A stretch of DNA of 56,531 nt, counting the filler, from Basidioascus undulatus (Eukaryota): the NCBI GenBank assembly GCA_000826855.1. It is 5 parts of 5 records of this genome, joined end to end, with 100 filler letters (N's around TTAATTAATTAA, not from the genome) between each part and the next. Parts side by side here need not be neighbours in the genome. Positions count along the whole stretch, not along the records: positions 45,332 to 56,531 come from JTLS01001030.1; 4 more parts are not named here. One strand, 5' to 3'. The notes beneath the pieces were generated by a model, which saw only the letters and a program-made list of their open reading frames with translations, did not search any database and had not been told where the DNA came from. This document shows positions 2,856 through 56,531 of the stretch, piece by piece. Each line of letters opens with the position of its first letter. Positions within the stretch are counted from its first letter, which is position 1. The translations under genes and the position numbers were made by a program.

Positions 2856-4250
2856 GATGGGACGGCGATTAGGATGGGAAGGATATAATGCAGGTAGTGT
2901 GTATAAGTGTCAATTTTGGTGCTATTGCGGCTTCGGGTGTTCGACGAGGATAAGAATTGAAGCGAGAAGCTGCTGAGGTGGATGCGGGAGAGGGTCGAGC
3001 TCAAGAGACGCGTGCAAGTCGCGGCGGTGATGGTCCGCTGCCCCTTGGCTGCGTCAATCATCCCTCGGCCACACAGACTCTCACACCATGTCATATTCCT
3101 CGCGCTGATACTGACGTGAATATCGAACGATTCCACGCACACTTACTTTGACAATAATGTATTCGAAGCGTGCTCAGTTCGCTCGTTTCATTCGTTCGTC
3201 CTTCCACATCGCACCGTCGAGCGTCGTCTCAGCCCTTTCTCTGAGCGATAGGCGGCCGGACGGACATTCGTGTTTCTTTGGGAACTCAACAGGTCCAACT
3301 GGGTCTTGAAGTTCAACAGTTGGGGGCTTGCCGACCAGGTCGGCTTCGAACTGGCTCGCCGCATCATTGGCTCGCGGCGACGATGCTTCTTGAGGGCCAT
3401 GGGCATCAACTCAATCAAACATAACCTTTGAAGTCGACGTCCAGGTCGACATCCAAACCTTTACTGCAACTCACCTATGGTCACCTCCCATGCGAGTGCC
3501 TGATCCTTTCGACGGCAACCCTGCACACCACAGCCGAGCTCACTCCCAGTCCTCGAGCAACCTTCCCGCCAGCTGCGAACTCTGATTTTCAATATTAGGG
3601 ATTGACTTTACCCAATTCGAATGCATTCATCAGCGAAACATTTCGGCTCCGATCCGGTCGCACTTGGCCGCTATAACCACAATATCACTGACAGTGCCTT
3701 CGGGCCCAACTTGTCAAGCTCACGAAACATATCTGGCCCTGGCGAGACATCGCAGCCCACACGGGCCAGAACTTCTCAAGAAAACCTACCAGTTTGCATG
3801 TAGTTTGGCACACTCATCAAGGTCCAATGTCGGCTGTATCTTAGGCAGCTCTGAGAGCTCTCGTTTCGGTTCCTCGACGCGTGCGTTCTCTACTTGATCA
3901 GGTTTATCCCGAAACCCCCTATGAGTTTCTATGGGCGCAGCTGGGGGCCCCTCGAGCTAGACGTATGGTGCCTGCGGGCACACATTTGGAAGCGGACGCA
4001 GTGAGGACTTTCAGGCAGACAAAACCGTTTCGCTTCTCATTACAGTTCCACTTCTATCTCCTCTTGCTCATCTTCCATCCACCCATCCTCAAGTCAGTCA
4101 GCACCGGTATCCTCCCAGTATAACCCGCACTTCAGCGCCACCTTCTCTACCTCCCTCGTAACCCTAGCGCCCCAAACTGAGGTGGCCTCATACTCGCGCC
4201 CACCAAAGAAGTCCTCCCAGCACACCCTCTCCAGCCTGCTCACCTTGCCC

Positions 4251-5094
4251 GCCGATATCGCGCTGTGTCCTCTGGAAGCGACTCGCATTCGTCTCGTGTC
4301 CCAGCCGACGTTCGCCAGTGCCTTGGTTAGCGGGTTCTCGAAGATCCTCAGCCAGGAGGGCGTGGGCGCGCTGTATGCTGGGTGAGTGCGATTGTTGACT
4401 GCGTGAAGACGCTGTGCTGACTTGTGGTCCGGCCCGGGATAGTTTCGGTCCCATCCTGGTCAAGCAGGTTCTGTACACCATGGCCAAGTTCGCTGTCAAG
4501 GAGGAGGTCTTCGAGGCGTCTGTCAAGGCGATGGGGAAGCCGAAGTGAGAGCTGTCTAACGGTACCATCACGTCGCTCAACCTCGGCTTGGGTCTGATTG
4601 CTGGTTTAGCTGCTGGTGCGTCCAAGAACTTCACTCAACTATGTTCTACCGCCGAGAAGAGAAGGATCTGCGGTAACTCTTGCCGACGTGACCGTGCAGC
4701 GATCGTTTTTCAGCCGGCCGACACGCTACTGAGCAAGATCGACAAGGCCAAGGCTGAGCCTGGTGAGGCGTCACCTCCCGCCTGGTCAAGATGGCCAAGC
4801 AGCTCGGAGTCCGCGGTCTGTTCGGTGGCATGAGTCAGTCTACCCGCAGACATCTATGCCAAGCATAGGTGGGTGTTGCAACGCCTGACTACTCTTTTTC
4901 CCGCCGTATCTGCAGCTACTCGTCTCGTCATGATAGGTACTCTGACCGCTGGCAGTTTGCCATTTTCAGAGAGGTACAGTACCGTGTTACGATTCCGTTA
5001 TCGCGCCGCTCAACTGACAGTGGCTCTATTCCTCAAGGTCAACCGCCTCGTCGCAGCCACAGGTGGCTTCGACATTCCGCCTTTGTCTAAGTGA
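4251..5094 (+). pseudogene. MIR1: 5'-truncated, intron-retaining pseudogene of mitochondrial phosphate carrier (Mir1/Pic2 family)
   Basis: [58 protein letters not shown] are carrier signatures; in-frame TGA at 4546-4548; frameshifts near 4770 (TSRLVKMAKQLGVRGLF resumes in another frame) and near 4953 (G-Q-FAIF broken); no N-terminal third found upstream. Confidence 0.88.
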
Positions 5095-7062: not shown

Positions 7063-8075
7063 ATGTCCAGTAAATTCATCCTGCTCTCCAACCCCAACTC
7101 GCCGGTACGTCTTGGCCTTCCGCAGCTACATCCCCAACCGCTCGACATCTGGAACCCATACTGATGCAGTTCTTGGAAGTACGTACACAAAGTGCGCGTG
7201 GCCGCGCGAGAGCTGGGGCTGTGGGAGCAGATCGAAGTCCGGGACGTCAGTGCGTGTTCCGTCTTCCTCCTCTTCGAACGTCTGATGCTGGCAGACTTAC
7301 CTTCCCAACTCCAGTTGCCTCACCCGTAATCGACTCAGAAGTCGCGCAGAACAACCCTGCCGCAAAGGTCAATTGACCACCCTGCATTTTCCACCCTCTG
7401 CGAGCGCTCAGCCCAGGCACTGCGTGGCAGATCCCGACCCTCGTCTTCCCCTCCGGCGAAGGCATCTTCGGATCGCAGACTATTGTGCAGTACCTCGACC
7501 TCATCGCAGGCGGGGGGAAGCTCCTCCCGCCGTCGACGGATGCGCGCCGCATCTCGGCGCTGACGCTCGAGAGCGCGGCGGACGCCCTGCTTGACGCAGC
7601 TCTGTTGCTGCGCTATGAGACGTTTGCGAGGGTGCGCTTGAGAGGCTTGATCTTAAATGACACTGCGAGTTGATGTTTCATGTTGCAGCCGGAAGCGCTT
7701 CGTTGGGACGACTGGGCCGAAGGCCAGAAGAAAAAGGTCCGTCGCACTTCAACGTCTCCGTGCCCGCGCAAGCTCTCGCTCAACTCCTTCCTCTCCAACA
7801 CCACACAGATCTTCCGCTCCCTCTCATACTTCGCCGACCGCCTTCCCTCAGCGACAAACTCCGCTCCCGGCGGGCGACTCTCCGACCCGAGCGCCACGGG
7901 CGTCCTGCCTCTCCAGTCGATCGCCGCCGCTTCCGCGCTGTGGTACCTGGACCGGCGCTTCTCTACCGACTTCGATTGGCGCGCGGCCGTCAGCGGCGGC
8001 GCGGCGCTCGCGCGCTGGTACGAGCAGGTGCAGGCGCGGGAGAGCTGGAAGGCCGCTGAGCAGCCAATTTCTTAG
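7063..8075 (+). CDS. Glutathione S-transferase, bacterial YibF-like subfamily, 6 exons
   Basis: Spliced: MSSKFILLSNPNSPYVHKVRVAARELGL...NNPAAKIPTLVFPSGEGIFGSQTIVQYLD...ADALLDAALLLRYETFARPEALRWDDWAEGQKKKIFRSL...IAAASALWYLDRRF..DWR; five GT-AG introns (donors at ~7105, 7250, 7368, 7632, 7737). Confidence 0.85.
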
Positions 8076-8230
8076 TCGCGGGCTGGCGGGCATTGGCGCA
8101 TTTAATTGCATCCAGGGGACTATAATACCAAATTGACAATCATGATCAAACGCCTTCGGGCTAGCACGATACACTCCTGCTGATAATCTCAAAATGGCTA
8201 TCTGCGTGCTTCAAACAATACACACCACAC

Positions 8231-10637
8231 TCAGAACGCCTCGCTCCACACATCTCTTCCACCCGGCGGGCCGCCCTCCTGCTGCTGCTCGTCGCGCCTG
8301 GACAGCGGCTGTGCGTAACGCTCTTTGAGCACGGCGAGGCGCGAGCGATAGTCGTCCGCGTTGATGTACGCGCCGCACAGCCTGCGACGGCCTTCGAATG
8401 CGGAGCGGCCGTGCAGGACGCTGTTGAGGGTGAACACACCGTGTGGGAGATCAGCGTGATGCGAAGAGAGCGGAGGAGAGTATGAGGAGAGACGGACCGC
8501 CAGTTGTCGAAGACTGCAATGAAAGAGCGCCGGCGTCAGAAGATCTGATCCGAGCATTGGGGACATCAAGAAAGCCAAACGCACTCAATGCTGTGCCCGG
8601 CGCCAAGCTGCTCCAGTACTCGGAGTCATCGCTAGTCAAGATTTCGTTCCACTTCCTCAGCGCGTCATACCACTCCTCCACGACAGCCGGGTCGATATTG
8701 CGCATCGCCGAGCGGTCGTCGTTGTTGTACCGGACCTGGAACAGGTCCGTGCTGACGGGGTCGTGCCGGAGGATGGGGTACCCGGCGAGCGGCGCCGGCC
8801 GGATGAGCACGTCCGGGTCGCCTGCCGCGTGCGCCGGCACGCGCACGGTCGACAGGAGCTCGTACGCCCGTGGGTGCAAAGAGCGCAGGAGAGAGGCACA
8901 GTAGAACCCGTCTACGATGAGCGAGTGCCCGCCTGTAGGAGCGGCTTCGAGAAGGTGGAAGAGCTGCAAGCCGATGGGGTCCGTCTGAGGGAGAGGGTGA
9001 GGGCACGTCGCGGTTGAAGACAGCAGATCGACACATACGAAGTAAGTCGTATCAGCTGCAAACCGCTCGAAGCGTCAGCCTCAACATCAGAGAAACGGAA
9101 GGGCGATCAAAAAGACGCACTATGAACTTTCAGCGCAAGATTCGTGTACGCCGTGTCGCCATGTGCCAAGTCGGCCGTAAAGTCCCAGAACCCGCCATCT
9201 GCGCACCCCATCCCATCCACCTCATCAGCCACCATCACCACCCTCCCTCCTGCACCGCCGCTCGCAGGACAAACGCACAGTGCGACTCGCGGATGAACGC
9301 GATCCTTCTCGCGAGCTTCTCCGTGTCCTCCGGGTTGACGGGCACGCCCTCGATAAAGCAGAACCCGAATTGCTCCTGCGTCCCACCATCCCATGGTTTT
9401 CTCCAATCAGCCGATCTGTCGCGGGAGGAGAGAGGGGAAGTGCACGGGCGACGCACGATCTTGCGCAGCCACTTGAACACGCCCGCGTCGTCGCGCATGA
9501 CCTCCTCGTACGAGACTTTGGGGGGTGTGGAGGCGATGCGGGAGGACCAGAGGATCTTCCTGTGTTCCGCACCAGTCCCATTCAATGCTCTGTCAGCAGC
9601 GGAGGAAGGAGACAGACGCACTCGTCATCAGCTAGGATCCGGCGGTCATGCTCGTCCGCCAAGGGGGGGTTATAAGAGTTGGCGTAGAGCCAGCGCCAGG
9701 CTGCCATTCCATCCTCAATCAGCTCCATATCCAGCCAAGCGCACCCACCATCAGTCCTCCAACGCACGATACCGCGAAACATGAGGCGGCTCGCCTCTCA
9801 CCGGCGCCCCTGCAGCCGCGCCCACTCCCAAATTGCATCAGCACCTCCCGCATCAGCTTGCCTCTGAAGCCCCAGACGCACAGGTGACTTCCAGCCCGGA
9901 TGGCGAGCTCTCCAGTGCGGTCGGGTGCATATCAGGCGGGATCTGGTCGTCCCTCTCGCAACCGATCAGCACCGCCTTCCTTCCTTTTCCCTCCCGGCTT
10001 CCCCTCCCTCCCTGTCCACTTACGCCAAATGTGTCCACCAGCCGCTGCTTCGTCACCGGGTGGAAGCACTCCGGCTGGCGACAGTGGTCCCTCAGCCAGA
10101 TATGATGGCTGCGCCCCATTCCATCCCACACCCATCCCAGTCCTCAGCATCGCGGAAGGAAGGAAGGAAGGGAGGAAGGGAAGACGCACAACTCGCTCGT
10201 CCGCCCGCTCTCCCACGTGATCTTCACGAACCGCTTGTCGAACGACGCGCGCGGGCCGTTGTGTGCTGCGGTGGAAGCGGGAGGGGCGAGGTCGTCGGAC
10301 TGTGAGGAGGGAGGCGCGGGGGCGGGGTTAGTGGTGGAGAGCGGGCGGTATCGCTGCTCGGAGCATCGGATCAGCAATGCTGGGTTCTCGTATGTACGAT
10401 GGGAATGTACGGGAACGCACACTGCTTCCGCACACAAGCGAGCCACTCCCCCCGACGAGTGCGACGCCGGCTCGGACGGCGCTGCTTCGAGCCGGCGAAG
10501 AGCGAAACGACGTCAGTTCCCCCGCTCCCCGCGCTCCCTTCCCTTCCGCGCTTCACTCACGGGGCGGGGGATGCGGCAAAGGCGCGCGGGCGCGGGCGCA
10601 GGGCGGTGCGCGCTATGCGCGTGGCGGAGGTCGACAT
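8231..10637 (-). CDS. TMLHE: Trimethyllysine dioxygenase (Fe/2-oxoglutarate dioxygenase, carnitine biosynthesis), multi-exon, probable mitochondrial presequence
   Basis: HIWLRDHCRQPECFHPVTKQRLVDTF (GBBH-type N domain), FGFCFIEGVP, GFWDFTADLAHGDTAYTNLALKVHTDTTYF, DPIGLQLFHLL, VDGF, QVRYNNDDRS, FDNWRVLHGRSAF..RRLCGAY; Arg/Ser/Ala-rich N-terminus MSTSATRIARTALRPRPRAF. Confidence 0.93.
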
Positions 10638-11072
10638 TGTGTAGATGGTAATGGTGGTTGGTGGGGGAGGAGAAGAGAAGCCAAGACAGTTGAGGAACAG
10701 GGGACGGAGTTGGGCCCGGCGTCCCGAGGTTTCGGGCGTGTTCGTGCATAGCTGTGTTTCGGAGGCGTATTTGCTGATTTTGAGAGAGACGGACAGGCAG
10801 GAAGGAGGTGTATGATGAAAAGGATATGAATTGAATTGAATAAATCAGAGGGAATGTGTGTCGGTGTGGTGGGCAACCCGGGAGGACATTGAGGTGAAAT
10901 GCACTCCGAGACTAGAGAAAGGACGCCATTGCGAACGAGGGAGGACTAGAGCACGAAGGAAGAACAGCGAGCAACGAGCAATGAGCGACGAATAGGAATA
11001 CGAGTACATATTCTCAACAACACAGCGCGGAACAGCCAACAATAACAAAGCAAGCAACCCTCCGCTCCTACT

Positions 11073-11245
11073 CTACACCCTCCCCGCATCCGCGCTCGCA
11101 AACCGCCCGGCGCGGACCCTGCGCCTCTGCAACTCCTCCAGCGCCCCTCCTCCGCCGAGGCTGGCGGCCCACGCCTGGGTATCCGGGAGGCTGCTCGACC
11201 GCGCCGGGAGGGCCGGCGGCGGGAGCGCGCGGTCGCGGTACAGGG
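11073..11245 (-). CDS. 3' end of an unidentified gene truncated by assembly gap
   Basis: Open GC-rich frame LYRDRALPPPALPARSSSLPDTQAWAASLGGGGALEELQRRRVRAGRFASADAGRV* running out of the gap, followed by UTR-like sequence. Confidence 0.5.
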
Positions 11246-11345
11246 NNNNNNNNNNNNNNNNNNNNNNNNNNNNNNNNNNNNNNNNNNNNTTAATTAATTA
11301 ANNNNNNNNNNNNNNNNNNNNNNNNNNNNNNNNNNNNNNNNNNNN
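11246..11345. other. Artificial 100-nt assembly spacer
   Basis: N-run with central TTAATTAATTAA (stop codons in all six frames). Confidence 0.99.
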
Positions 11346-12219
11346 TTCTACTTCTCCCTCACCAACCCCGTATCGACACCCTCCTTTGAACTTCTCTTTT
11401 TGTTTTTCTTCTTCGTTCTCCGTTGCTTGGTTTGGGTTTGAGTTGCATTGGGTTTGGGGGAAAATGGGGGAGGGGAGGGGGAGGGGGCGTTGGAGCTGTT
11501 ATACACGCATTGCAGCAGCTGAAGACGCGGGTGCAGCAGCGCATGCATCGTCTGCTTGAGAGGGAAAGGGTCAGCTGAAAGAAGGAAGTTTGGCTGCGCT
11601 GCGTCGGCCCCACTCAACTTGCACCCATCCACAGCTCGCCGCTTTGTCATGGAAAACCGAGACCTTGGCTCTTATCTCATGGAGCGATGCAACTGTTTCT
11701 CTCCAACACCGCAAGACACGCGCGCGCGAGGTGCAGGATCGGCACGAAGCGGATGTGCGCTCCTTTGAGAGTGGACAGGCGGTACTCCCTGGTCCTGATC
11801 GAGGAGCGCGGGTCACGCTCTAATCTCGTCTGTCTCGTTCGTAGCTGTTGATCGATTACGATGTACAGGTCTACGATTCCATTGTGCTGCTTCTGAAGTC
11901 CGCGGTCGTTGTTGCTCCATCGTGCTGCAAAGTAGTCGCCACTGCGCAGGCGTTGTCGCAGAACGTCGCGGACCATCTCGCTCGCGCGAGGACATTGGGC
12001 AATAGAATGTAAGTTTTCAACTTTATTGCCTAAATCTCGGTGTTATATGAGGTCTTCTGGGGGAAAAAGTAATGGCCGCAAGACGCGCTATGAGGAAGGA
12101 GAAGACGCACCTGACGTAAGCACCGGCGCTGTGGGAACTCCCAAGAGACCTGCGCTTTCTTGCCGCTTGCTCTCAACGCTCATCTTCTCCTTGGTCTCTA
12201 GGCACCGCGCACTGGCAGC

Positions 12220-22578: not shown

Positions 22579-22678
22579 NNNNNNNNNNNNNNNNNNNNNN
22601 NNNNNNNNNNNNNNNNNNNNNNTTAATTAATTAANNNNNNNNNNNNNNNNNNNNNNNNNNNNNNNNNNNNNNNNNNNN
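22579..22678. other. Artificial 100-nt assembly spacer
   Basis: N-run with central TTAATTAATTAA. Confidence 0.99.
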
Positions 22679-33906: not shown

Positions 33907-34006
33907 NNNNNNNNNNNNNNNNNNNNNNNNNNNNNNNNNNNNNNNNNNNNTTAATTAATTAANNNNNNNNNNNNNNNNNNNNNNNNNNNNNNNNNNNNNN
34001 NNNNNN
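33907..34006. other. Artificial 100-nt assembly spacer
   Basis: N-run with central TTAATTAATTAA. Confidence 0.99.
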
Positions 34007-45231: not shown

Positions 45232-45331
45232 NNNNNNNNNNNNNNNNNNNNNNNNNNNNNNNNNNNNNNNNNNNNTTAATTAATTAANNNNNNNNNNNNN
45301 NNNNNNNNNNNNNNNNNNNNNNNNNNNNNNN
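45232..45331. other. Artificial 100-nt assembly spacer
   Basis: N-run with central TTAATTAATTAA. Confidence 0.99.
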
Positions 45332-45477: not shown

Positions 45478-46945
45478 CTCTCCTCGCACGCCGCCCTCAC
45501 GCGCGACCTCCTCTCCTCCGCGCGGGCCGAGAACGCGCGCGAGCTGCACGGGCTGGGAGAGAAGCTGGAGGCGCTCGCGATGCGGCAGGAGGTACGGATC
45601 GCGGAGCTCTGGGCGGAGCTTGGGAGGGTCAGGAGGGAACGGCAGGAGCTGAGGGGGAAGGTGGAGTGGTTGGCGGGGGAGGTTCGTTCCCTTCCTCCTT
45701 TCCTTCCTTTCCTTCCTTTTCCCGCCCTTCCCCCCCTTTGGAGTGGAAATTGATTCCCGAATGGCGGAGCAGGTCCTCGTCGAAAAGCGCCTGAGCGTCG
45801 CCCAGCTCTGCATCCTCCTGGTCGTTATTGTGTTCGGAGCGATCACGCGCGGGAGCCGCGCGAGCGTCGTCGGCTCTTCGCCCGTCCTGCAGAACCTTAC
45901 GTTGCGCACGAGAAAAGCCTCGATGTGGGGGAATGGGGGGGTGCATTCGCCGGAGGGGAGCGAGCGCGCGAGGGAGAAGGCGAGAAAGAGCGGGAGAAGG
46001 AGGAGGACGGGGGAGGAAGACGACGACGAGTACAACCGGAATTCTCAGCGATCCCCCCTCCTCCGCCGTCCGCTCTCTCCCCTCCCTCGCCCACCACGCA
46101 CCTTCTCCTTCCCCTCGCCCGCTCCCGGGCCAGGGACGCACCGCGCCTCCTCCTCCGCCTCCTCCTCCGAGCCCGCCGCCCGCCTCGCGCGCCTCGCACA
46201 CCTGCACGGCATCGACCCGCACGTCGTGCGCGAGCTGCTCGCCACCCAGTCCGCCCAACACCAGCAGCATCTCCACCCCTCCCCGCACTTGCATCCCCAC
46301 GCGCACTCCCATTCTTCTGCCTCGTCCACGACTAGCACGAGGCCCGCACCGCTGCGGTTCGTACGCGCCGCAGCGGCCGAGGGCGAGGGGAAGCGCGGGG
46401 GGAGCAGGGCGGGCACGCCTGTGAGGAGGTCGTTCACCCCGGCGCAGGCGTCGGAAATGGAGGCGGAGCCAGAGACGGAGGAGTGGACGACCGATGCGGA
46501 TGCGGACGAGCACCCGCAGGACCTCATCCTTTCGCAATCCCATTCGCTCTCGTCAGTCGAGACCCCCACCCCGACCCCCGGCTTCCGCGCAACACTCCGT
46601 CCCTCGCCCTCATTCTCCCCTACGCCGTCCCATCCGCCTCCGCACCTCGTCCCCCTCCCGCCCTCGCCGTCTCCGTCTCCCTCACATTCACCCGCTCCAC
46701 CACAAACATTCGTCTTCCCCTCCTACTCGTCCTCGCCGCACCCCGAGCTCGTCCTCCCCCACCACCCAGATACGCCCCTCGCCGAGCTTCCACCGCCGCC
46801 GCCACCGAGTCCGAGGCGGGAGGATGAAGGACCAGGGCTGTGGTCGGGAGGGGAAGGGGAACGAGGGGAGAGGAGAGGAGAGGGTGCGGGGGGTGTGGGG
46901 CTGGGCGTTGTCGGGATGGTCAGGAGGGCGGAGGTGGTTGTGTAG
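45384..46945 (+). CDS. SLP1: C-terminal part of mid-SUN (Slp1/SUCO-like) protein, 5' part lost in gap
   Basis: GESIYRTIMKRLSALE, coiled coil, then after an intron VLVEKRLSVAQLCILLVVIVFGAITRGSR TM segment and a disordered tail; the SUN domain itself is not in the contig. Confidence 0.8.
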
Positions 46946-47338
46946 CGTGGGGGTTGGGGCGGGTGAGATTGATGTGCTGTTTTTACTTGCTTGTCTTGGG
47001 AATGTGCATTGCAGGTTAGAGGAGGCTTCGCGTGTTGGCAGAGAGTTGGTTGACGACGTACGTGAAGGTTGTTCAGCGTTTGGTGAGAACTGCGGTAGTG
47101 CTGGTGTAAGGGGCTGGGTGGCGGTGCGTCGAATCAGCCCTTAAACACGAATTCAGGTTCAAATGCATCAGAAATAGTCGCTTTCGTCTCATCCTTGTCG
47201 ATTTGAATTCGCAGATGATGCTGAAAGGGTTATGTTGCAGGCCCGTGACATAGGCTGGCAGCCCTCACATTCATTTGTGCTTCGCTGCATACGAGAGGTC
47301 ACTCTTCCCCGCTCAACCCTTGACCCTCCGGTACTGCG

Positions 47339-48739
47339 TTAGGAGCAGTACTGGTATTGTCTCTTCAAAGATCCAGTGATCCTGCACGCACTGCGAAGTC
47401 GGGTAGGAGTGAGAACTGCCAGACGCAGCGGCAGCACGCTCCTGCACATCAGTCTATCGTTGACATCCCGCTCGAGTGCTGGACGATCTGAGGCGACACA
47501 GCCGACATGGTGGTCTCTGCTCATACGCGTTCGATCATTGTCGAAGTTGAGAGCCCAAACGTGCACCGCAGAGGGCGAAAGTTCATGCAGATTGCGGACC
47601 CAACCCGTCGTTTCATCTCGCCCGTTTGGAAGCCTTCAAGCCTACATTATGTCTCGATTATTGATAGCACGCAATTGTCCCCGTTGACTCATCCCGCGGA
47701 AACACGCTCACTCAGCGCATGGTAAACCTCCGGCGTTGAGATGAGCAACGCTCCTGAACGATCAGGCGGTTCCAGTCCATCCCCAAGAGTCCGTCACCAC
47801 GATGCCAATCCAAACGCACTTCGGAGTATGCCAGGTTTGACGGAATCGGGGCAGTCGAAATACGGGCAGCTGAATGCCTGGCTCTATGTGCAGACACTCG
47901 GTCCGAGAAGGAAGATCCGAGCGCCATGCCTGTCGGGTGGCCTGCGAGCCAGCCCGTGCGGAGCTGCGAGAAGTCAAGTATGACCCTCTCGAAACCAAGC
48001 CCCGACGAATCCCTCCTCCACCAGAATGCCCGCTCTTGGGAGAGCCGCTCGATATCAGATCTCATGTGTCCGTTGAACCACCGCGTCTGTCGACAGCCCA
48101 TTCGTCCCACCGCACGCTGCCGGTGCGGCCTTTCTGAGAAAGGAGAAGCGAGAGCGGGATAATGCAGGTGACTCCTTTGCCGAGTACGTGACCGTCATCT
48201 TTGAAACGCCATACAAGAGATAGGATACCTCTCCCAGCATCTCCGTATGATGTGTGAGAAGAAACCGTCCCACAGGTGAGGTTCATGCTCTCGCATGTCT
48301 CGTGAGTCGAGAGAACCGGCAGCTCAAGCCTGACGATACGTTCTCCCTTCGCGAAAGAGACGGGCATCAGAGACGGAGTGATTGCTGGGGCCTCCTGTGG
48401 CAGCTCCGCCAGGAGCACGATGTCCGGAGCGATGAAAGCGAAAGATGAAAAGACGACGCCGTGAGGAGTGGAGAGCGGCTTGACGACCTGCCCGGAAAGA
48501 CACCCTCGTAAGCTCGAGCAAACGCGTTCAGCTCGGCGCGGGGCAGGTGCGCGGCGATCGCGAACTGCGAGGCGCGAGGGTGGAGCGCTCAGTAGAGCAT
48601 CCTGGAAGGAATGAAGGGGAACGAGTATGTCGTAAGGCCGGGAGATCATGTTTTCGGTGGCTCGGAAGAGGATCTGGCGTTGTGGTTTGGGGTCAAGATA
48701 TGTGCCAAAGCTGCGCGTGTGCAAGCGTCGGCAGGCCAA
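47339..48739 (-). pseudogene. Degenerate basidiomycete F-box-associated-type gene
   Basis: VRLELP, VRWDEW then frame switch to GCRQTRWF, VILDFS and VWALNFD resemble the C-terminal region of basidiomycete F-box proteins; apparent 1-nt deletion at ~48097-48099; 5' boundary unclear. Confidence 0.45.
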
Positions 48740-49313
48740 ACCGTGACCACCTTTTTCTGTGACTTCTGTCAGGACCGGCCAGATCAGTGGACCTCAACCG
48801 AGTTTCGCGGTGGGATATGTCAGATGGAACAGGTAGGGTACTTTGCAGTACCGGTGAACACGAAAACTGCATTCGCCTCGCTTTCACCTATTTGTGTAAC
48901 TTCCTGCCGGAAACATGTCCAGAATCCTTTGACTCAATCTGATAATGGTTTCGGCTTATCCCATGAGGCTCATAAGACGACGACAAGGGAAGGCATTCCC
49001 TTCTAGAAGGTAGCCGAGCTTCCCCATACTTTAGATCATTCAACTTACCTGTGTTCATTAAATCTCAAAGCAGCCACACATAGGGTAGTATTGGATTACC
49101 CGTGGTGGCTGCACGGTCCACGCAATAGCGCTGATGGTCAAGGGTTCCACGCAACGCTGGTCTCTGTTGCGCCACTCAGCAAGTAACGCAACGCTGCCTA
49201 AGCGCGATGTTTTCTTCCTTTGTAAATCGTCGAAGTATAGCTATCGGACATAATAGAGAACCCGGTCGTGACTTGACATTTTCGCGATCTCGCCAAATGC
49301 ATGTCCCCGCCCA

Positions 49314-51207
49314 CTACAACTGCACCTCCCTCAGCACATCCTCCAGCGCCTCCCACGCAGCGCGCACGTCCGCAAACGTATTGTACAGCGGAACCGGCGC
49401 GAGGCGGATGACGTCCGGCTTCCTCTCATCCCCCGTCACGCCCCTCTTCTTCAACCCATCAAACACCTGCTGCATGACGTTCCTCCTTGCGGGCAGAAAC
49501 AGTAAACTGAGCTGCGCGCCGCGCTGCTCGGGCTCCTCGGACGTTAGGATTGTGAAGCCCGGGCGGTCCGCCGCGTCAGCGGTGGAGGATGAAGAGAGGA
49601 AGAAGGGCGAAGCGCGGAGGAGCGTGTCGAGGTAGGCTGTGAGGAGCAGCGACTTCTTGCGCAGCGTGCCGACGCCGCCCGCGCGGTCGAAGAGCTGCGT
49701 GCTCCCCAGGAGGGCGACGAGCGGGAGGACGGGCGTGTTGGAGAGCATCCACGCGGACGCCCCCTGCGAGGGCACGAAAGTCGGATTCATCTCGAACCGC
49801 GTTTCGGGGTCGTGCCCCCACCAGCCGACGAGGCGCGGGAGACGAGCGGTGGAGGAGGAGGAGGCGGGGCAGGTGTACTTGGAGTGCACGAAGATCCCTG
49901 CTAGACCGCCGGGGGAGGCGTTGAGGTACTTGTAGCTGAGCGGACGAGAGCGATAAAGATTGTTTCAGAGGGGAAGACGAGGGAAGACGAGAAGGCGGAT
50001 GGAGCAGGAAGGACGCACGAGCACCACACCGCAAAGTCCACACCCCAGTCGTGCAGGCGGAGCGGCACGTTCCCGACAGCGTGTGCGAGGTCCCACCCGA
50101 CCGTGCAGCCCTGTCCCACCGAACCATCAGCAATGAAATGACGCGCGACACAACACCACGCATGAGACTCACCCGCTCCTGTGCAGCCTTGGTGATCTTC
50201 TCCATTTCGAACCACTGGCCCGTATAGAACTGGACGCCCGAGAAGAGGACGAGCGCGATGGAGTTGCCCTCGCGCTCGATCGCGGATAGGATGTCCTCCG
50301 TCCGGAGGGTGTGCTCGCCCGGTCGGGGCGAAAGGGGCAGGAGTGCGGTTGACGGGTCCAGCTTGTGGAGGAGGACTTGCGACTCGAAGGCGTACTGGTG
50401 ATAAGGGATGCAGGGAGGCATTAGCTCGGATTAAGCGGAGCGCGAGGGGGGAATCGACACACTTGGTCGGAGGGGAACGCTTTCGCCTCATACAGGATCT
50501 TGAATCTTGATGGCGTAGGTCGGTAGAAGCTGAATGGTAGAATCATCAGCATAGCTGTATGATCAAGATTGTACGACAGTTGCGCACGAAATCATCATGT
50601 GATGCAAGTTGGATGTCAGAGCGCCCATAGCGACGACTTCGGACACGTCGGCACCTGCACCCAGCCGTTGGTCAGTAGATGCCCCATAAACGGTAGCAAA
50701 ACAATAGGCTAACCAACGATGTTCGCCAAAGATTCCTTCACAAGCTCGTCGGCCGTCTTCCAAGGGCGATCAAGCGGATGGTCGAAGTGGCCGTCCACAG
50801 CCCTACGACAGTGTGGATCTGTTAGACTGAGCGGCGCCCCAAGCGTAAGGGAGAGGCGCACCTCTCGCTCCAAATCTTCAGCTCCTCTTGGATGAGGTCC
50901 CCAGTGCGCTTGGGCATCAAGCCGAGCGAGTTCCCGCAGAGGTAGACGGACGGGTCGTCGAGGGCTGACAGAGCGCGCCCGAGAATCAGCTACGGCCGAG
51001 ACTCGAAAGACACGTCATGAGTATCCTACACTGCCCCTTCGAAAGAAAAGCATCCGCGCCCATGGTGTGGCGCGGAGGGATGTTGAATTCGGAGCGAAAG
51101 TCATGGAGATCGTCGTGCTCGTCGAGCCAGCGCGGGACGGCTGGGTCGAGCACGTCCGAAATGCCAGAAGCCTCAAGGGCTTTGGTGAGTATTTCGCGAG
51201 ATGCCAT
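49314..51207 (-). CDS. BNA5: Kynureninase (PLP-dependent), multi-exon
   Basis: [105 protein letters not shown] (PLP Lys), [35 protein letters not shown]. Confidence 0.97.
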
Positions 51208-51485
51208 GAGCGTGGTCAGTTATAATTTCAGGAGCGAAAGGAGGTTGCGGTGATGGAAAAAGAGAAAGAGGGGAAACGGAAACCAAGCTGTTTGGGAAAC
51301 AGGCTGCTTACTAGGAGATTCTCGCGGAGATTCGGCCCTTCGCCCGGCGTCTTTGCGCTGCTCGCCGTCCTCGTCCTCCTCGCCGTTGCCTGCATCGCGG
51401 TCGCTGCCGGGCAATCGATCGTCGCCAGTCGAGGCCTTCAGGATCCTTATATTCACGGGCATCCTCCCCTCCCCGCTCCTTCGTC

Positions 51486-52849
51486 ATGGCCGCTCTCTCC
51501 CCTATCCGCGTAGCTCTCTCCTCGAGCTCAAGACGAGCGCCCGCCGTGCTCGTCCGGTCTCGCTTTATGTCTACTGAGGCCGCGCCCGCCTCCGTCCCCT
51601 CCTCTTCCGCTGTACCCGACATCCCCACCAAGCTGCCGGACGAGTCGACGTCCAGGGTGGGCCAAGAGATCTTCGTCCGCGTCTGGGACGGCATCCCATC
51701 CGCTGCTCACGCCCTTGCTATTGTCAAACACCTCGAGCTCAACTATGGCGAGGTCGCGGACTTCTTTTTCCCTCGTGTGAGCATCATTTTTCCGGTCGGT
51801 CTGGGTGCGGGTGGGTGCGGTGGTCTTGACACCGCTCTCCCCGCCGCAGAACATTGACACCAACGAAGTCCAATCCTACGGCTTCATCACCTTCCGCGAC
51901 GCCTCCTCCGTGAACAAGATCGGGACGAGCCCAACGTTCGTCGACGTGCCCGCGCCGGCCGTCAATCCGCGCCAGCCGGGCGGCCTGAGCTGGAACGACG
52001 TCAAGGACGTCTTCAACTGGCGGACGGTCCCGCGCGCGAAGGAGATCGCCGAGCGCTCGGACGCGCGCAAGGCGGTCATGGAGGTCAAGGTCGAGGTCAA
52101 GTCAAACGTGTCGTCTGGTGCGTTGTACTCTCACTTCTGGGGCGGGCTTTGCGTTTCCCTTGACTGCCCTGCTCCCTGCTCCTCTGCCTTCTCGAAGCTC
52201 ACCCCTGATCATGCTTCCTTCTTTCCTCCAATCAGAACCCCGCAGCGCCTCCCAACCCCTTCGTCTCTCCGACCGGAATCTTACCCAGCGCGTGCGTGCC
52301 CTGCAGGCCTTCTCCGGGTTCAACGACGGGCTCGTGCCCGTGCGGGAAAAGGTCGAAAGCGTCCTGCGTTCCCGGGGCGTGACCGTCCCCGAGTTCAATC
52401 CGACCCTCAACACCCCTCCCTCGCGTGTCGATGTCGAGGCGGTCCGCGAAGGTGCGGCGGCGCTCAAGGGCGTCGTCTGGCAGCAGGGCGAGGAGTCGCT
52501 CCCGACTGCGCGACTGAACTGGTCGGTTCCCCCACCGACCACCAGCACCTCCTCCTCCCCCGCGTCGGACCTTCCCGAGCCCGAGCCCCTGCCTGCTTCG
52601 GAGGAGGCCCCCGCCGAGTCGCTCGCGGTCAACGCGCCCCCGAAGCGCCGCTCGAGGGCTTACCTCGCGGGTCTGGCGGCGGCATCGAAGTCGGACGCGG
52701 ACGCGGCTGCGCCGAAGCCGGACTCGAGCGGGGCGGACAGCTCGGCGCAGGAGTTGGGTCAGGAGCCGCAGGTTGGGGGTGCGGCGGAGGAGACGGAGAA
52801 GAAGGAGAGCGGAACGACGGGCGGGTGGTGGGGACCCTGGAAGAGCTAG
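51486..52849 (+). CDS. Probable mitochondrial protein with a degenerate RRM, 3 exons
   Basis: Presequence-like MAALSPIRVALSSSSRRAPAVLVRSRFMST; EIFVRV..YGEVADFFFPR / NIDT..QSYGFITF (RNP1-like); ends GGWWGPWKS*. Confidence 0.65.
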
Positions 52850-53227
52850 AGGATCTGAGGGGCTTGCATTTACTGTGATGCTTTTGAGACTGCGGTGTGC
52901 TCTGACTCATGGGACCTCGCAGGTGCTTCGGTGAAGGCTGCGATGGGCAAACGAGTTACATGGGAACTGGTAGACTTGAAGTTTGAACTTCACGGGCACA
53001 GTTGGTTCGATCTTTCCAGATGCATCGCCAAAATATGAGACGATGGATTCTCAAACAAGACTCCTAGCGAGGCACAAATGATTACCACGTTCAATGAAGC
53101 AACGACAATCGGATAAATCACAGCAAGACGCCACTGCTCATGTCTGCGCTGGAAGGTCCGTAGGGCTGCACTTGAGTTCTCTTCCATCTCCTACTACAAC
53201 AGCTGTGGGCCGTACCAATGCAAACGC

Positions 53228-54832
53228 TCAAAACTTCGGCGGGCTCTCCCCAAGCCCCAAGCCCGAGTCGTGCGGCGATCCAAACTTCGGCTGTCGTTGA
53301 GCGAGGAACTCGGTCAGACGATCGCGGATGGGAATCTCCCATTGGGGACCCAGTCGGTAGAACTGCAGTTAGGCAATATCGCACGAGCTAGTGAGCTTCC
53401 AAATCAGAAGAAGGACGGGAGGAAGGCGAACCTCGACTGTGTTCAAGGCCAGGACTGCAGCTTTGTTTTCTGTCGTCAGGATCTTGTCGAGCAAGGGGGC
53501 GGAGGCGACCATGCGTCCGGCTTCGGGGACTTCGCCCAATCTGTATTGTCAGGAAATTTTTCAGAGTCACCCTTGTTTCTGCGAGGTTGAAGACGTACGG
53601 GAAAGGATAGTCGCTGCCGAGCAAGATCCTGCACAAACCGTTGCACCGTCAGTTCGGCCAGTTACCAAATGAGTGAAGGCGTCAAGTTGTTACCTACCTG
53701 TTCATTCCCACTTTCTTCGCGAGAAACTCGAATGTGTGCTCGTCATGCACGAGGCTGTCGAACCACAGCGCCCGGCGCTTGATCCACTCTGCAGGGCTCA
53801 CGCCGCCGCTGCGACCAGCGACGAGGTCCGGACGGCAATCTGGAGAGTTGTGCAGCGCAGACCGCATTGACTGATAAGTTTGAATGTCGACATAGAGGCT
53901 CGTAAAGCGGCGAAAACGAACCGTAGCCTTGCCCGATGCGCCCCATAGTTCCAGGGAAGCTGCCGCCGCCGTGCGCGAAGCAGATGCGCAGCTTGGGGTA
54001 CTTGTTCAGCAGGCCCGACAGCAGAATAGCATTGATGGCTAGTGTCGTCTCGCAGGGCATACCGACTAGCCAGGACGACCAGTACGATGACCACTATGGG
54101 CAGGTCCACAGTTAGCGCGTAAGCGGCAGAAACGCGCCGGCAACGTACCTTCTCGGCGTTCTCCTTCGCCCAGGTATATCCGAGCGGATGCACGAACACG
54201 GGCATATCGAGCACCTCGCACTCTGCCCACACGGGCTGCAACTCCGGCGCATCGAGGCTCCACGCGCCGATGTGCGTCCCGATCTGGATGCCCTGCAGGC
54301 CGAGCTCGTGCTTGCATCGGCGGAGCTCAAGGATGCTGAGGCTGGGGGACTGGAGGGGGAGCGTGCCGATGCCGATGAACTTGCTCGGGTGGGCGCGGCA
54401 GAGCGTGGAGATGTGGTCGTTCAGGTATCGAGCGAGCTTGTTCACTGGCTCTGCCGGCTGTGTAGAACTGGGAGATCAGCCGCAAAGGGGCACAGTGAAC
54501 GGACTGGATCGGCGCACCTGATCATAGAAGAACAGCACAGGTACAGTGCTAAGCACCTGCGCATCCACATGGTTCTCCTCCATCTCCCGCAGGCGCACGT
54601 CGACATCGTAGCAGTTGGGCTCGACGGTGCGGAAGAACTTGTTGCCCACAGACATGTCGACGTTTCCATCGGCGCGCTCGCGCAGCGTCAGCCATGCGCT
54701 CCCGCCGTACTCGGCCGCGAGGTCGGGGAGCTCGCGGGGCATGATGTGCGTGTGGCAATCAATTCGGAAGAGCGAAGGGGAGTGTGTGCACGAGCACGAG
54801 GTGACCTTCTGGGGGTTGGAGGTAGCGGACAT
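53228..54832 (-). CDS. ACMSD: 2-amino-3-carboxymuconate-6-semialdehyde decarboxylase (amidohydrolase_2), multi-exon
   Basis: RIDCHTHIMP, KFFRTVEPNCYD, QVLSTVPVLFFY, ARYLNDHI, GIGTLPLQSP, GIQIGTH, VFVHP, WLVGMPCETT, FAHGGGSFPGTMGRI, RPDLVA, DSLVHD, ILLGSDYPFPLGE; last exon inferred to end at TGA 53228-53230. Confidence 0.93.
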
Positions 54833-55400
54833 GTTCTGCTCGCAGCGCAGGAGTCGTGAGCACTTCTCGAAGTTTGGGAGGTGAACACAGCCGTACCTGT
54901 TTGATAAGGGATGTGGTGATTGCAATTTCCGTATCTGGAGATGGTGAAGAAGAAGACTTGAGTTGTGGATGTTCGCTTGCGGGAAGCAGGTGACCCCCCA
55001 AGACCGAATGCCGCGGGAGCATCGGCCACTGTGAGGCATGCGGTTCGGATGCGGACCAGTCTGACCCTTGACACGCTCTGCAATCCTCTTCTAGACAGTC
55101 CGTAAATGCGGATTCCAAACCGTTACCACCATTTTAATTATAAGGTGCTGGTCGTGGGCGTTGGCAGCGCAGCCTGGCGAATCTCGAGAGCGTGCGATGA
55201 AACAACACCCGCATGCCATGGCAGTCTCGTGACAGACAGCCTCGATTGTCGACTGATCCCCAAACAGCTCTCAACGGTCTGAAATATATAGGAGAGTTTT
55301 TATATAAAAAATTACAAAGTCCGAAAATGGAAAGACGCGTATGGTATACCAAAAACTGTCCAATGCACCCCTAGACCCGCCCTCCCCATCCTTCACACCA

Positions 55401-56531
55401 CTAGAAACCTTCCTCCTCGTCCGTGCAATACACGTCCAGCTTCCCTTCCGCCTTCCCGCCCGACCGCTCGCGAGCGCACTCGATCGCACAGTCAAAGTCC
55501 GACTCGTCGAGCAGCGAGCTGTGCCGTGCCATCAGGGGGCTACATGTGAGCTCGTTGCTGCGGAAGAAGGGGGGAAGGAGAAAGGCGTGACTACACAAAC
55601 GAGTCCTCGTCCTTGTACTTAAGCCGCAGGCCACCCAGGCACTTGTTGAACTTCATGAGCACCGCCGAGATGAACTGCAGGGGGCGGGTTGGGTCAGTTG
55701 CAAGCCTAGCAGCGTAGAGTAGAAGCGAACGCACCTCGTCGTAGCTCATCTGCGGCATGTTGACGATCATCCCACGGACGTCGTCCCTGTAGAAGAGCTA
55801 TACCTTCCCATCCCCAATCAGCCCAAGCGGAACCCGTCTCAGCAGGCATACTCACCCGTACCTTGATCCTGATCCTCGTGAGCTCGAACGCGTTCGAGCC
55901 GTAAAAGTCGCCGTCGCTCTGGTAGCGGTCGTCCTCGCGCATCACGGGAGTCCGCCCGCCCGGGCGCCTCCCGGCGGAGCTGCTGTTCGGCGAGAGGCGC
56001 GCGGACATCAAGCGCTGCAGCAGCGCCGGCTCGACCTTGCGCGTCCAGGACGCGAGGCGCGGCATGTTCGGGACGGGACTGCGGTCGGCGTCGTTAGTAG
56101 GGCGGTAGGCGTTGAGGTAGTCGTCATAGACCTAACGAAACGGGGAGGGGTCAGAATTCTGCCTGATAGGAACAAATGGGTCGAAGGTAAGTGACGCACC
56201 TCCGTCGCGTGAGCGTAGGCAGGCCGCGGCTTCTCGTCGTCTGGCGGCGTGAGGAGACGGGCCGCGCCCGAACCGGTAACAGCGCGAGCCTGGGGCCTGG
56301 CTGGGGTCAAGTCGAGCCTGGGGGGCGGAGGCGGCCTGGGCGGGGGTGGCCTCGTTCCCTGTTGGCGGGCTGTTCGCGCTCTCCCCAAGTTAGTGCCCAT
56401 CGCAGTCGAGGGGGGAGCCGGCATGGGCGGCCACAGGCGCGCGACGAGGGAATGTTACGTTGGGCGCCGACCGTCGCGCTCTTGGAGAGCCCCGCGGCCC
56501 CACCCGACCCGCCCAGCGGCACGTTGTCCAT
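55401..56531 (-). CDS. noxR: NADPH oxidase regulator NoxR (p67phox-like), C-terminal part with PB1 domain; runs off window
   Basis: Spliced: TEVYDDYLNAY ... FELTRIRIKLFYRDDVRGM ... LRLKYKDEDSFV..LLDESDFDCAIECARERSGGKAEGKLDVYCTD, a PB1 domain with the layout of basidiomycete NoxR; TPR region lies outside the window. Confidence 0.82.

Follow-up and report, generated by a model that had tools for sequence, protein, structure and literature searches.

A kynureninase–ACMSD gene pair and a predicted complete lower kynurenine pathway in an apparent basidiomycete

Do two kynurenine-pathway genes that lie side by side in a fungal genome form a catabolic unit? The question arises from a 56,531-nucleotide stretch of DNA from Basidioascus undulatus (assembly GCA_000826855.1; the whole stretch is hereafter the window), in which a preliminary description had noted a kynureninase gene (KYNU/BNA5) and an ACMSD gene and had proposed that they make up a co-regulated catabolic or picolinate-producing module, perhaps with a dedicated kynureninase. 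Our analysis indicates that the adjacency of KYNU and ACMSD is real and of unproven meaning, and that the two are probably not a dedicated unit. The lasting result is what appears, from gene predictions, to be a complete lower kynurenine pathway, in two gene pairs, in an apparent deep-branching basidiomycete.

Two intact genes on one contig

The window consists of five pieces, each about 11.2 kb long, and in the linkers that join them a 12-mer carrying stops in every frame is flanked on either side by 44 N. These artificial linkers lie at 11246-11345, 22579-22678, 33907-34006 and 45232-45331, and gene order across them is meaningless. KYNU and ACMSD are wholly on the last piece, contig G000:C38 (11,200 bp), of a fragmented 32-Mb genome assembly of 2,992 contigs. 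Both are on the minus strand: KYNU (51207-49314) is modeled as 8 exons encoding 479 amino acids and ACMSD (54832-53228) as 7 exons encoding 403, with only GT-AG introns and no internal stops in either model; the limits noted for the pair are exact, with KYNU stopping at 49314 and ACMSD starting at 54832. Between the stop of ACMSD and the start of KYNU lie 2,020 bp with one plus-strand gene, which is head-to-head with KYNU and tail-to-tail with ACMSD; KYNU is not head-to-head with ACMSD. Genomic contigs of two runs, X1 and X2, cross both genes unbroken, and a misassembly of the locus was rejected because of this coverage (X1 and X2 may be the assembly’s source data).

Contigs of a third run, X3, skip exactly the predicted introns: all seven in KYNU, both in the middle gene and at least two of the six coding introns in ACMSD, where splicing is displayed for introns 5 and 6 (15 of the 21 splice joints are listed, so the ACMSD count is a lower bound). 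A further X3 joint, 53148-53216, spans a 67-nt intron in the ACMSD 3′ untranslated region (53149-53215, minus strand), 12 nt past the stop codon. Although X3 is labelled ‘DNA?’, it covers genes only and is spliced, and we therefore infer that its contigs derive from RNA. KYNU, ACMSD and the middle gene are all transcribed, with KYNU and ACMSD in separate spliced contigs. The gene models and X3 splicing confirm that the genes are intact and co-oriented, about 2 kb apart on one contig with a single gene between them, as the preliminary description had it.

The identities proposed for the two genes are right, as judged by profiles and active-site residues. KYNU matches PF22580 at 74 bits (cut-off 27), and two of its exons match TIGR01814. 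When its residues are mapped onto human numbering via a Wallemia protein, D249, K275, W311 and R450 at the pyridoxal phosphate (PLP) site are equivalent to human D250, K276, W305 and R434, with K275 as the PLP lysine, and H99 and N339 correspond to human H102 and N333 (not to W and T). H102/N333 is the signature of 3-hydroxykynurenine-preferring kynureninases as defined in PMC11329768. KYNU thus resembles the eukaryotic 3-hydroxykynurenine-preferring type, the ordinary kind of the NAD pathway. Basidiomycete proteins match it best, at up to 58% identity. The idea of a dedicated kynureninase is disfavored by the paralog count: the fragmented assembly holds one kynureninase locus and a search for a second found none, as compared with two kynureninases in many filamentous ascomycetes (FAMeDB Table S4, PMC13094099).

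ACMSD matches PF04909 and is 52-55% identical, over its full length, to fungal-type ACMSDs, of which the named ones are ascomycete. All five zinc ligands are kept (H28, H30, H195, H249 and D319, equivalent to His6, His8, His174, His224 and Asp291), and R68, R260 and W216 match the substrate residues Arg47, Arg235 and Trp191. The ligand and substrate-residue definitions are those of PMC9021598; positions were mapped via sheep ACMSD, and the Asp291 equivalent was placed by its DYPFP motif. A 54% identical relative, P0122, matches human ACMSD structures at an E value of 1e-73 versus 1e-25 for uracil-5-carboxylate decarboxylase, and by this measure, as in the ACMSD tree below, the protein sides with ACMSDs rather than with the other amidohydrolase-2 decarboxylases. 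The genome assembly contains one ACMSD locus; the search for a second returned as its sole other match a 28-34% identical amidohydrolase piece on C2238. The biochemistry given in the preliminary description also stands, in that ACMSD does belong to the catabolic branch. Fused forms of ACMSD were seen in two other proteins: P0158 (976 aa) has a C-terminal region that is kynureninase-like by eye, and P0160 (623 aa) a region that looks, again by eye, like tryptophan 2,3-dioxygenase.

A predicted complete catabolic route

The other pathway genes are dispersed. HAAO (C2984), IDO (C2886), QPRT (C1731) and KMO (C906) are on four contigs other than C38, and the pathway is spread over six contigs in total. 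The only HAAO found sits amid unrelated genes, and no pathway neighbors of HAAO, IDO or QPRT were seen when the open frames of their own contigs were read by eye (C1731 is only 3 kb). Searches for the aldehyde dehydrogenase and Rid families, with 13 of 84 dehydrogenase candidates scored, revealed a second gene pair outside the window, on the 5.4-kb contig C1054 (locus L042, G000:C1054). It consists of AMSDH (3713-1688, minus strand; 8 exons), a 521-aa aldehyde dehydrogenase, and the 2-aminomuconate deaminase gene AMD (4085-4650, plus strand; 3 exons), encoding a 145-aa Rid protein; the two are head-to-head, 371 bp apart. Seven of the eight best PDB rows for the last AMSDH exon are AMSDHs and the eighth is a hydroxymuconate-semialdehyde dehydrogenase, and the PDB entry that the Rid protein matches best is 2-aminomuconate deaminase. 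In the ascomycete cluster discussed below, AMSDH and AMD lie within 5-10 kb of ACMSD; here, on a separate contig, they may be as close or farther away, since C38 extends 1.7 kb upstream from ACMSD and breaks off within another gene.

Because C1054 carries AMSDH and AMD, the genome is predicted to encode the full 3-hydroxyanthranilate catabolic route (HAAO, ACMSD, AMSDH and AMD) to 2-oxohex-3-enedioate, for which in vitro evidence comes from the deaminase of Aspergillus flavus (bioRxiv 10.64898/2026.06.05.730449). IDO, KMO, the single KYNU and HAAO would make ACMS, from which two branches would lead. In the first, ACMS would cyclise to quinolinate and QPRT would carry it on to NAD+; in the second, ACMSD would decarboxylate, AMSDH oxidise and AMD deaminate, giving 2-oxohex-3-enedioate with release of ammonia and carbon. 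The single KYNU would feed both branches, and ACMSD would set the split between NAD+ and catabolism.

A similar arrangement is found on an ascomycete-type metagenome contig, L044 (overlapping L060), in which ACMSD is followed by AMSDH and AMD in the same head-to-head layout. Among the own-genome loci compared, the C1054 pair is the best match of the L044 AMSDH and AMD, and the two AMSDH genes have two intron positions in common. The L044 cluster occupies 7325-11440, and HAAO was not seen upstream of its ACMSD, unlike the layout reported as conserved.

Ascomycetes, Aspergillus terreus among them, are known to have a 3-hydroxyanthranilate catabolic pathway (PMC7842363), and the same four enzyme types that form the ascomycete HAAO-ACMSD-AMSDH-AMD cluster (PMC7842363; bioRxiv 10.64898/2026.06.05.730449) are present in this genome; the AMSDH/AMD layout is as in the ascomycete-type L044/L060, and ACMSD has the 52-55% identity to fungal-type ACMSDs given above. 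The system here is predicted to work like the ascomycete pathway, but outside that gene cluster’s membership: the host is apparently a basidiomycete, the genes are on three contigs, KYNU is linked and HAAO is elsewhere (in the cluster HAAO is head-to-head with ACMSD, 550 ± 220 bp apart), and AMD, reported to be intronless in ascomycetes, has two introns, these by gene model only. One KYNU with the H102/N333 signature and dispersed IDO, KMO, HAAO and QPRT recall the yeast-type de novo NAD+ pathway (BNA); unlike in that pathway, ACMSD, AMSDH and AMD are present and flux could leave the quinolinate branch. KYNU and ACMSD on one contig are reminiscent of bacterial kynurenine and 2-aminomuconate operons (28 of 48 non-fungal metagenome loci), whereas here both genes are intron-rich, of fungal type, in separate spliced contigs and parted by an unrelated gene. 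A fungal kynureninase also adjoins a pathway gene in idoB-bna5 of Aspergillus fumigatus (Afu4g09830 / Afu4g09840; PMC5786828), but the partner there is IDO rather than ACMSD.

Within the open-access literature (subscription papers lie outside this scope) we found no report of a basidiomycete with ACMSD, AMSDH and AMD together, nor of KYNU linked to ACMSD in any fungus; PMC10832562 and PMC4217691 contribute nothing here. The synteny screen of bioRxiv 10.64898/2026.06.05.730449 did not query KYNU and is silent on this link; ACMSD-bearing basidiomycetes may be listed in its supplements, where Fig. S9 covers 5,570 eukaryotes. Weak hints of related features come from two Agaricomycetes, Taiwanofungus with an ALDH8A1-like gene (PMC8865532) and Ganoderma with an untargeted annotation of 2-aminomuconate, made without a standard (PMC8719765), but stop short of showing the pathway. 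The enzymes and the pathway are already known; what would be new, within the literature covered, is that an apparent basidiomycete has ACMSD, AMSDH and AMD as a complete, intron-rich set. Such a set would place the loss of the lower kynurenine pathway later than the divergence from Ascomycota and would supply the missing outgroup for the ascomycete cluster.

Origin of the lower genes and meaning of the linkage

We call the host a basidiomycete, apparently a distant Wallemia relative, because KYNU groups with Wallemia; this single-gene placement has KYNU as sister to two Wallemia proteins, with support of 98/94 in a 25-row tree and a Shimodaira–Hasegawa-like approximate likelihood-ratio value (SH-aLRT) of 97 in a 49-row tree. 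In a 44-row tree, ACMSD belongs to the fungal-type clade (99/97) with one unnamed fragment and falls outside the clade (96/90) of all 15 named Pezizomycotina proteins. Approximately unbiased (AU) tests rejected its placement inside the Aspergillus-side, Sordariales or Leotiomycete group (p 0.015, 0.046 and 0.022); these three ascomycete groups were picked after the tree was seen. The named relatives matching two ACMSD exons are all ascomycetes (30 relatives were checked for names, and 19 clusters have none), and two exon searches (7 matches from 53 candidates; 20 from 268) named no basidiomycete ortholog, which is weak evidence. According to FAMeDB Table S4 (PMC13094099), ACMSD is present in 7/50 Ascomycota, 0/50 Basidiomycota and 22/50 non-Dikarya, and AMSDH in 8/50, 0/50 and 23/50, respectively. 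ACMSD, AMSDH and AMD are like native genes in their intron sizes and in their GC content at third codon positions (GC3, 0.75-0.83). A bacterial origin was rejected by the introns, the tree and the shared intron sites. Among the metagenome loci, L093-L095 (~9900-11050) contain a fungal-type ACMSD that carries a deletion and frameshifts and lacks pathway neighbors within 10 kb; this is a decaying gene, in line with repeated pathway loss.

The reading that we favor, with a probability of roughly 0.6 for the whole, is a complete kynurenine route with retained lower genes, in which the adjacency of KYNU and ACMSD is specific to the lineage and unproven as a regulatory unit. ACMSD, AMSDH and AMD would most likely descend from the Dikarya ancestor and have been lost in most Basidiomycota; such retention is the simplest reading. 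AMSDH-AMD would be an old pair, and the KYNU-ACMSD adjacency a lineage-specific one, interrupted by an unrelated gene. The gene models, splicing, residues, locations and trees on which this is based are observed, and from them we predict the activities, the flux, the vertical origin and the lack of co-regulation.

Several points weigh against this reading. If 6,000-12,000 genes are assumed, the chance of KYNU and ACMSD falling within two genes of each other is only 3-7 x 10^-4; for any of 35 pathway pairs it is 1-2%, and chance adjacency is thus unlikely in a single genome, yet not negligible over a large scan. The pathway clusters repeatedly, as in the non-fungal ACMSD contigs with a KYNU match counted above and in the consecutive locus tags of A. 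fumigatus idoB and bna5. Word sharing between the regions upstream of KYNU and ACMSD exceeds that in dinucleotide shuffles (2/200 shuffles reach the observed sharing of 7-mers and 6/200 that of 8-mers). The fungi in which the linkage was sought are all distant, and it may be conserved within the lineage. As to origin, the organism is placed by one gene, and the KYNU tree departs in its deeper branches from that of the species; in the ACMSD tree many rows are unnamed and none is identified as a basidiomycete, Taphrinomycotina or Mucoromycota sequence, and one AU value is borderline.

The alternative that survives best, itself unlikely, is a selected mini-cluster, in which ACMSD would have moved beside the single KYNU and the linkage would have been kept through co-regulation, coupling the supply of 3-hydroxyanthranilate to the catabolic branch. 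The low chance probability of the pair speaks for it, as do the second pathway pair in the same genome (AMSDH-AMD), the common orientation and transcription of KYNU and ACMSD, and an 11-mer that, within the 143,832 bases of genome examined, is confined to the two upstream regions. However, an unrelated transcribed gene is interposed and shares KYNU’s upstream region, and the word sharing is equalled by ordinary DNA: 17/163 (7-mers), 15/163 (8-mers) and 11/163 (11-mers) GC-matched genome segments reach it. The promoter words are significant against shuffles but not against real genome segments, and not one 8-mer recurs in all of the regions upstream of KYNU, ACMSD and AMSDH/AMD. The comparison of upstream regions gives no evidence of co-regulation, with little power to detect it. 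The 11-mer lies at 51286-51296 and 55259-55269, in opposite sense relative to the two genes, and 11 of the 163 control segments likewise share some 11-mer with the KYNU region.

The linkage is also absent from the other fungi compared. FAMeDB Table S6 (PMC13094099) gives protein accessions for 150 fungal genomes, and accession order was taken as a proxy for gene order. ACMSD occurs in 29 of these genomes, 25 of which also have a kynureninase; in none of the 25, all distant relatives, do the two lie within 5 accession numbers, the nearest being 78 apart. As positive controls, the proxy recovered ACMSD-AMD in 7/24 genomes, ACMSD-AMSDH in 5/25, AMSDH-AMD in 4/21 and ACMSD-HAAO in 3/27. Among 56 metagenome loci with ACMSD, a KYNU match is on the same contig in 28/48 non-fungal cases and in 0/8 fungal-type ones; the eight contigs represent 5 independent loci, 3 with long flanks and one with a damaged ACMSD. 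With the link missing from these genomes and contigs, and promoter words no commoner than in ordinary segments, the conserved, co-regulated module of the preliminary description loses its support. A lineage-restricted cluster may remain compatible with a comparison that covers distant fungi only.

An ancient horizontal origin, which we likewise consider improbable, concerns origin only and is compatible with either reading of the linkage: an early-ascomycete ACMSD-AMSDH-AMD cluster would have gained host-type introns and split, and ACMSD would have landed near the native KYNU. Ancient transfer from a stem ascomycete is possible, given the exclusively ascomycete named relatives, the absence of ACMSD and AMSDH from the 50 basidiomycetes, an AMSDH-AMD layout and two intron positions like those of the ascomycete-type cluster, and the transfer of the cluster among ascomycetes suggested in PMC7842363. 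Against this, the tree does not nest ACMSD within Pezizomycotina, non-Dikarya commonly have the pathway (22/50), and GC3 and intron sizes match native genes. Lower-pathway pairs exist outside Dikarya too: in FAMeDB Table S6, ACMSD and AMD accessions are 1-3 numbers apart in Smittium, Syncephalis and Thamnocephalis, and those of AMSDH and AMD are consecutive in Entophlyctis, so one chytrid and three zoopagomycetes have such neighbors and the pairing may go back to an ancestor.

A picolinate module, in which the product of ACMSD would be allowed to cyclise to picolinic acid, perhaps to serve as a metal chelator, is highly improbable, because intact AMSDH and AMD genes, paired on C1054, are there to consume the semialdehyde and Pfam searches of C38 recognised no transporter, regulator or tailoring gene, even though 2-aminomuconate semialdehyde decays to picolinate without an enzyme (PMC7842363) and some leak is expected; picolinate production, as proposed in the preliminary description, is thus disfavored.

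More speculatively, and doubtfully, a deep basidiomycete lineage on the Wallemia side might alone have kept the complete tryptophan-burning route of ancestral fungi and begun, independently, a new clustering, with ACMSD by the single NAD-pathway KYNU and AMSDH by AMD. If true, the branch point between NAD and catabolism would be controlled by chromosomal neighborhood, and a cluster would have been caught in assembly, in a combination otherwise found in bacterial operons. The KYNU-ACMSD link would be of importance only if it is retained in relatives, as a clean test case for fungal catabolic clusters forming around a shared housekeeping enzyme.

Neighboring genes and minor features

The middle gene (51486-52849, plus strand) has 3 exons and encodes 390 amino acids. 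It shares with KYNU a divergent upstream region of 278 bp between the start codons (51208-51485), into which the spliced contigs of KYNU and the middle gene extend as far as 51245 and 51392, positions that are contig ends and not transcription starts. No Pfam family matched the protein, and its only Atlas match (0.85) is to an unnamed eukaryotic cluster. Its N-terminus is rich in Arg/Ser and free of acidic residues, which we take to resemble a mitochondrial presequence, and its YGFITF is presumably an RNP1-like motif. Nothing about the gene gives any sign of pathway membership, and we take it as unrelated.

Directly upstream of ACMSD is the 3′ part of a gene (55398-56531, minus strand) with spliced joints that runs off contig C38. 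It is on the same strand as ACMSD and, from its exon translations, is not HAAO. A Pfam search of pieces of this gene gave no match; we take its C-terminus to be PB1-like, as in NoxR-type proteins.

On the other side, in the ~2.3 kb downstream of KYNU (47000-49300), no gene was recognised and no Pfam match found. Farther along, the gene at 45653-46945 includes a low-complexity part in which all three runs have a joint at 46288-46650 that encloses 27 letters of other sequence; this may be an artefact of local assembly or of a repeat. Within the stretch downstream of KYNU, 48094-48149 matches a second genomic contig with 7 differences, which suggests a short dispersed repeat.

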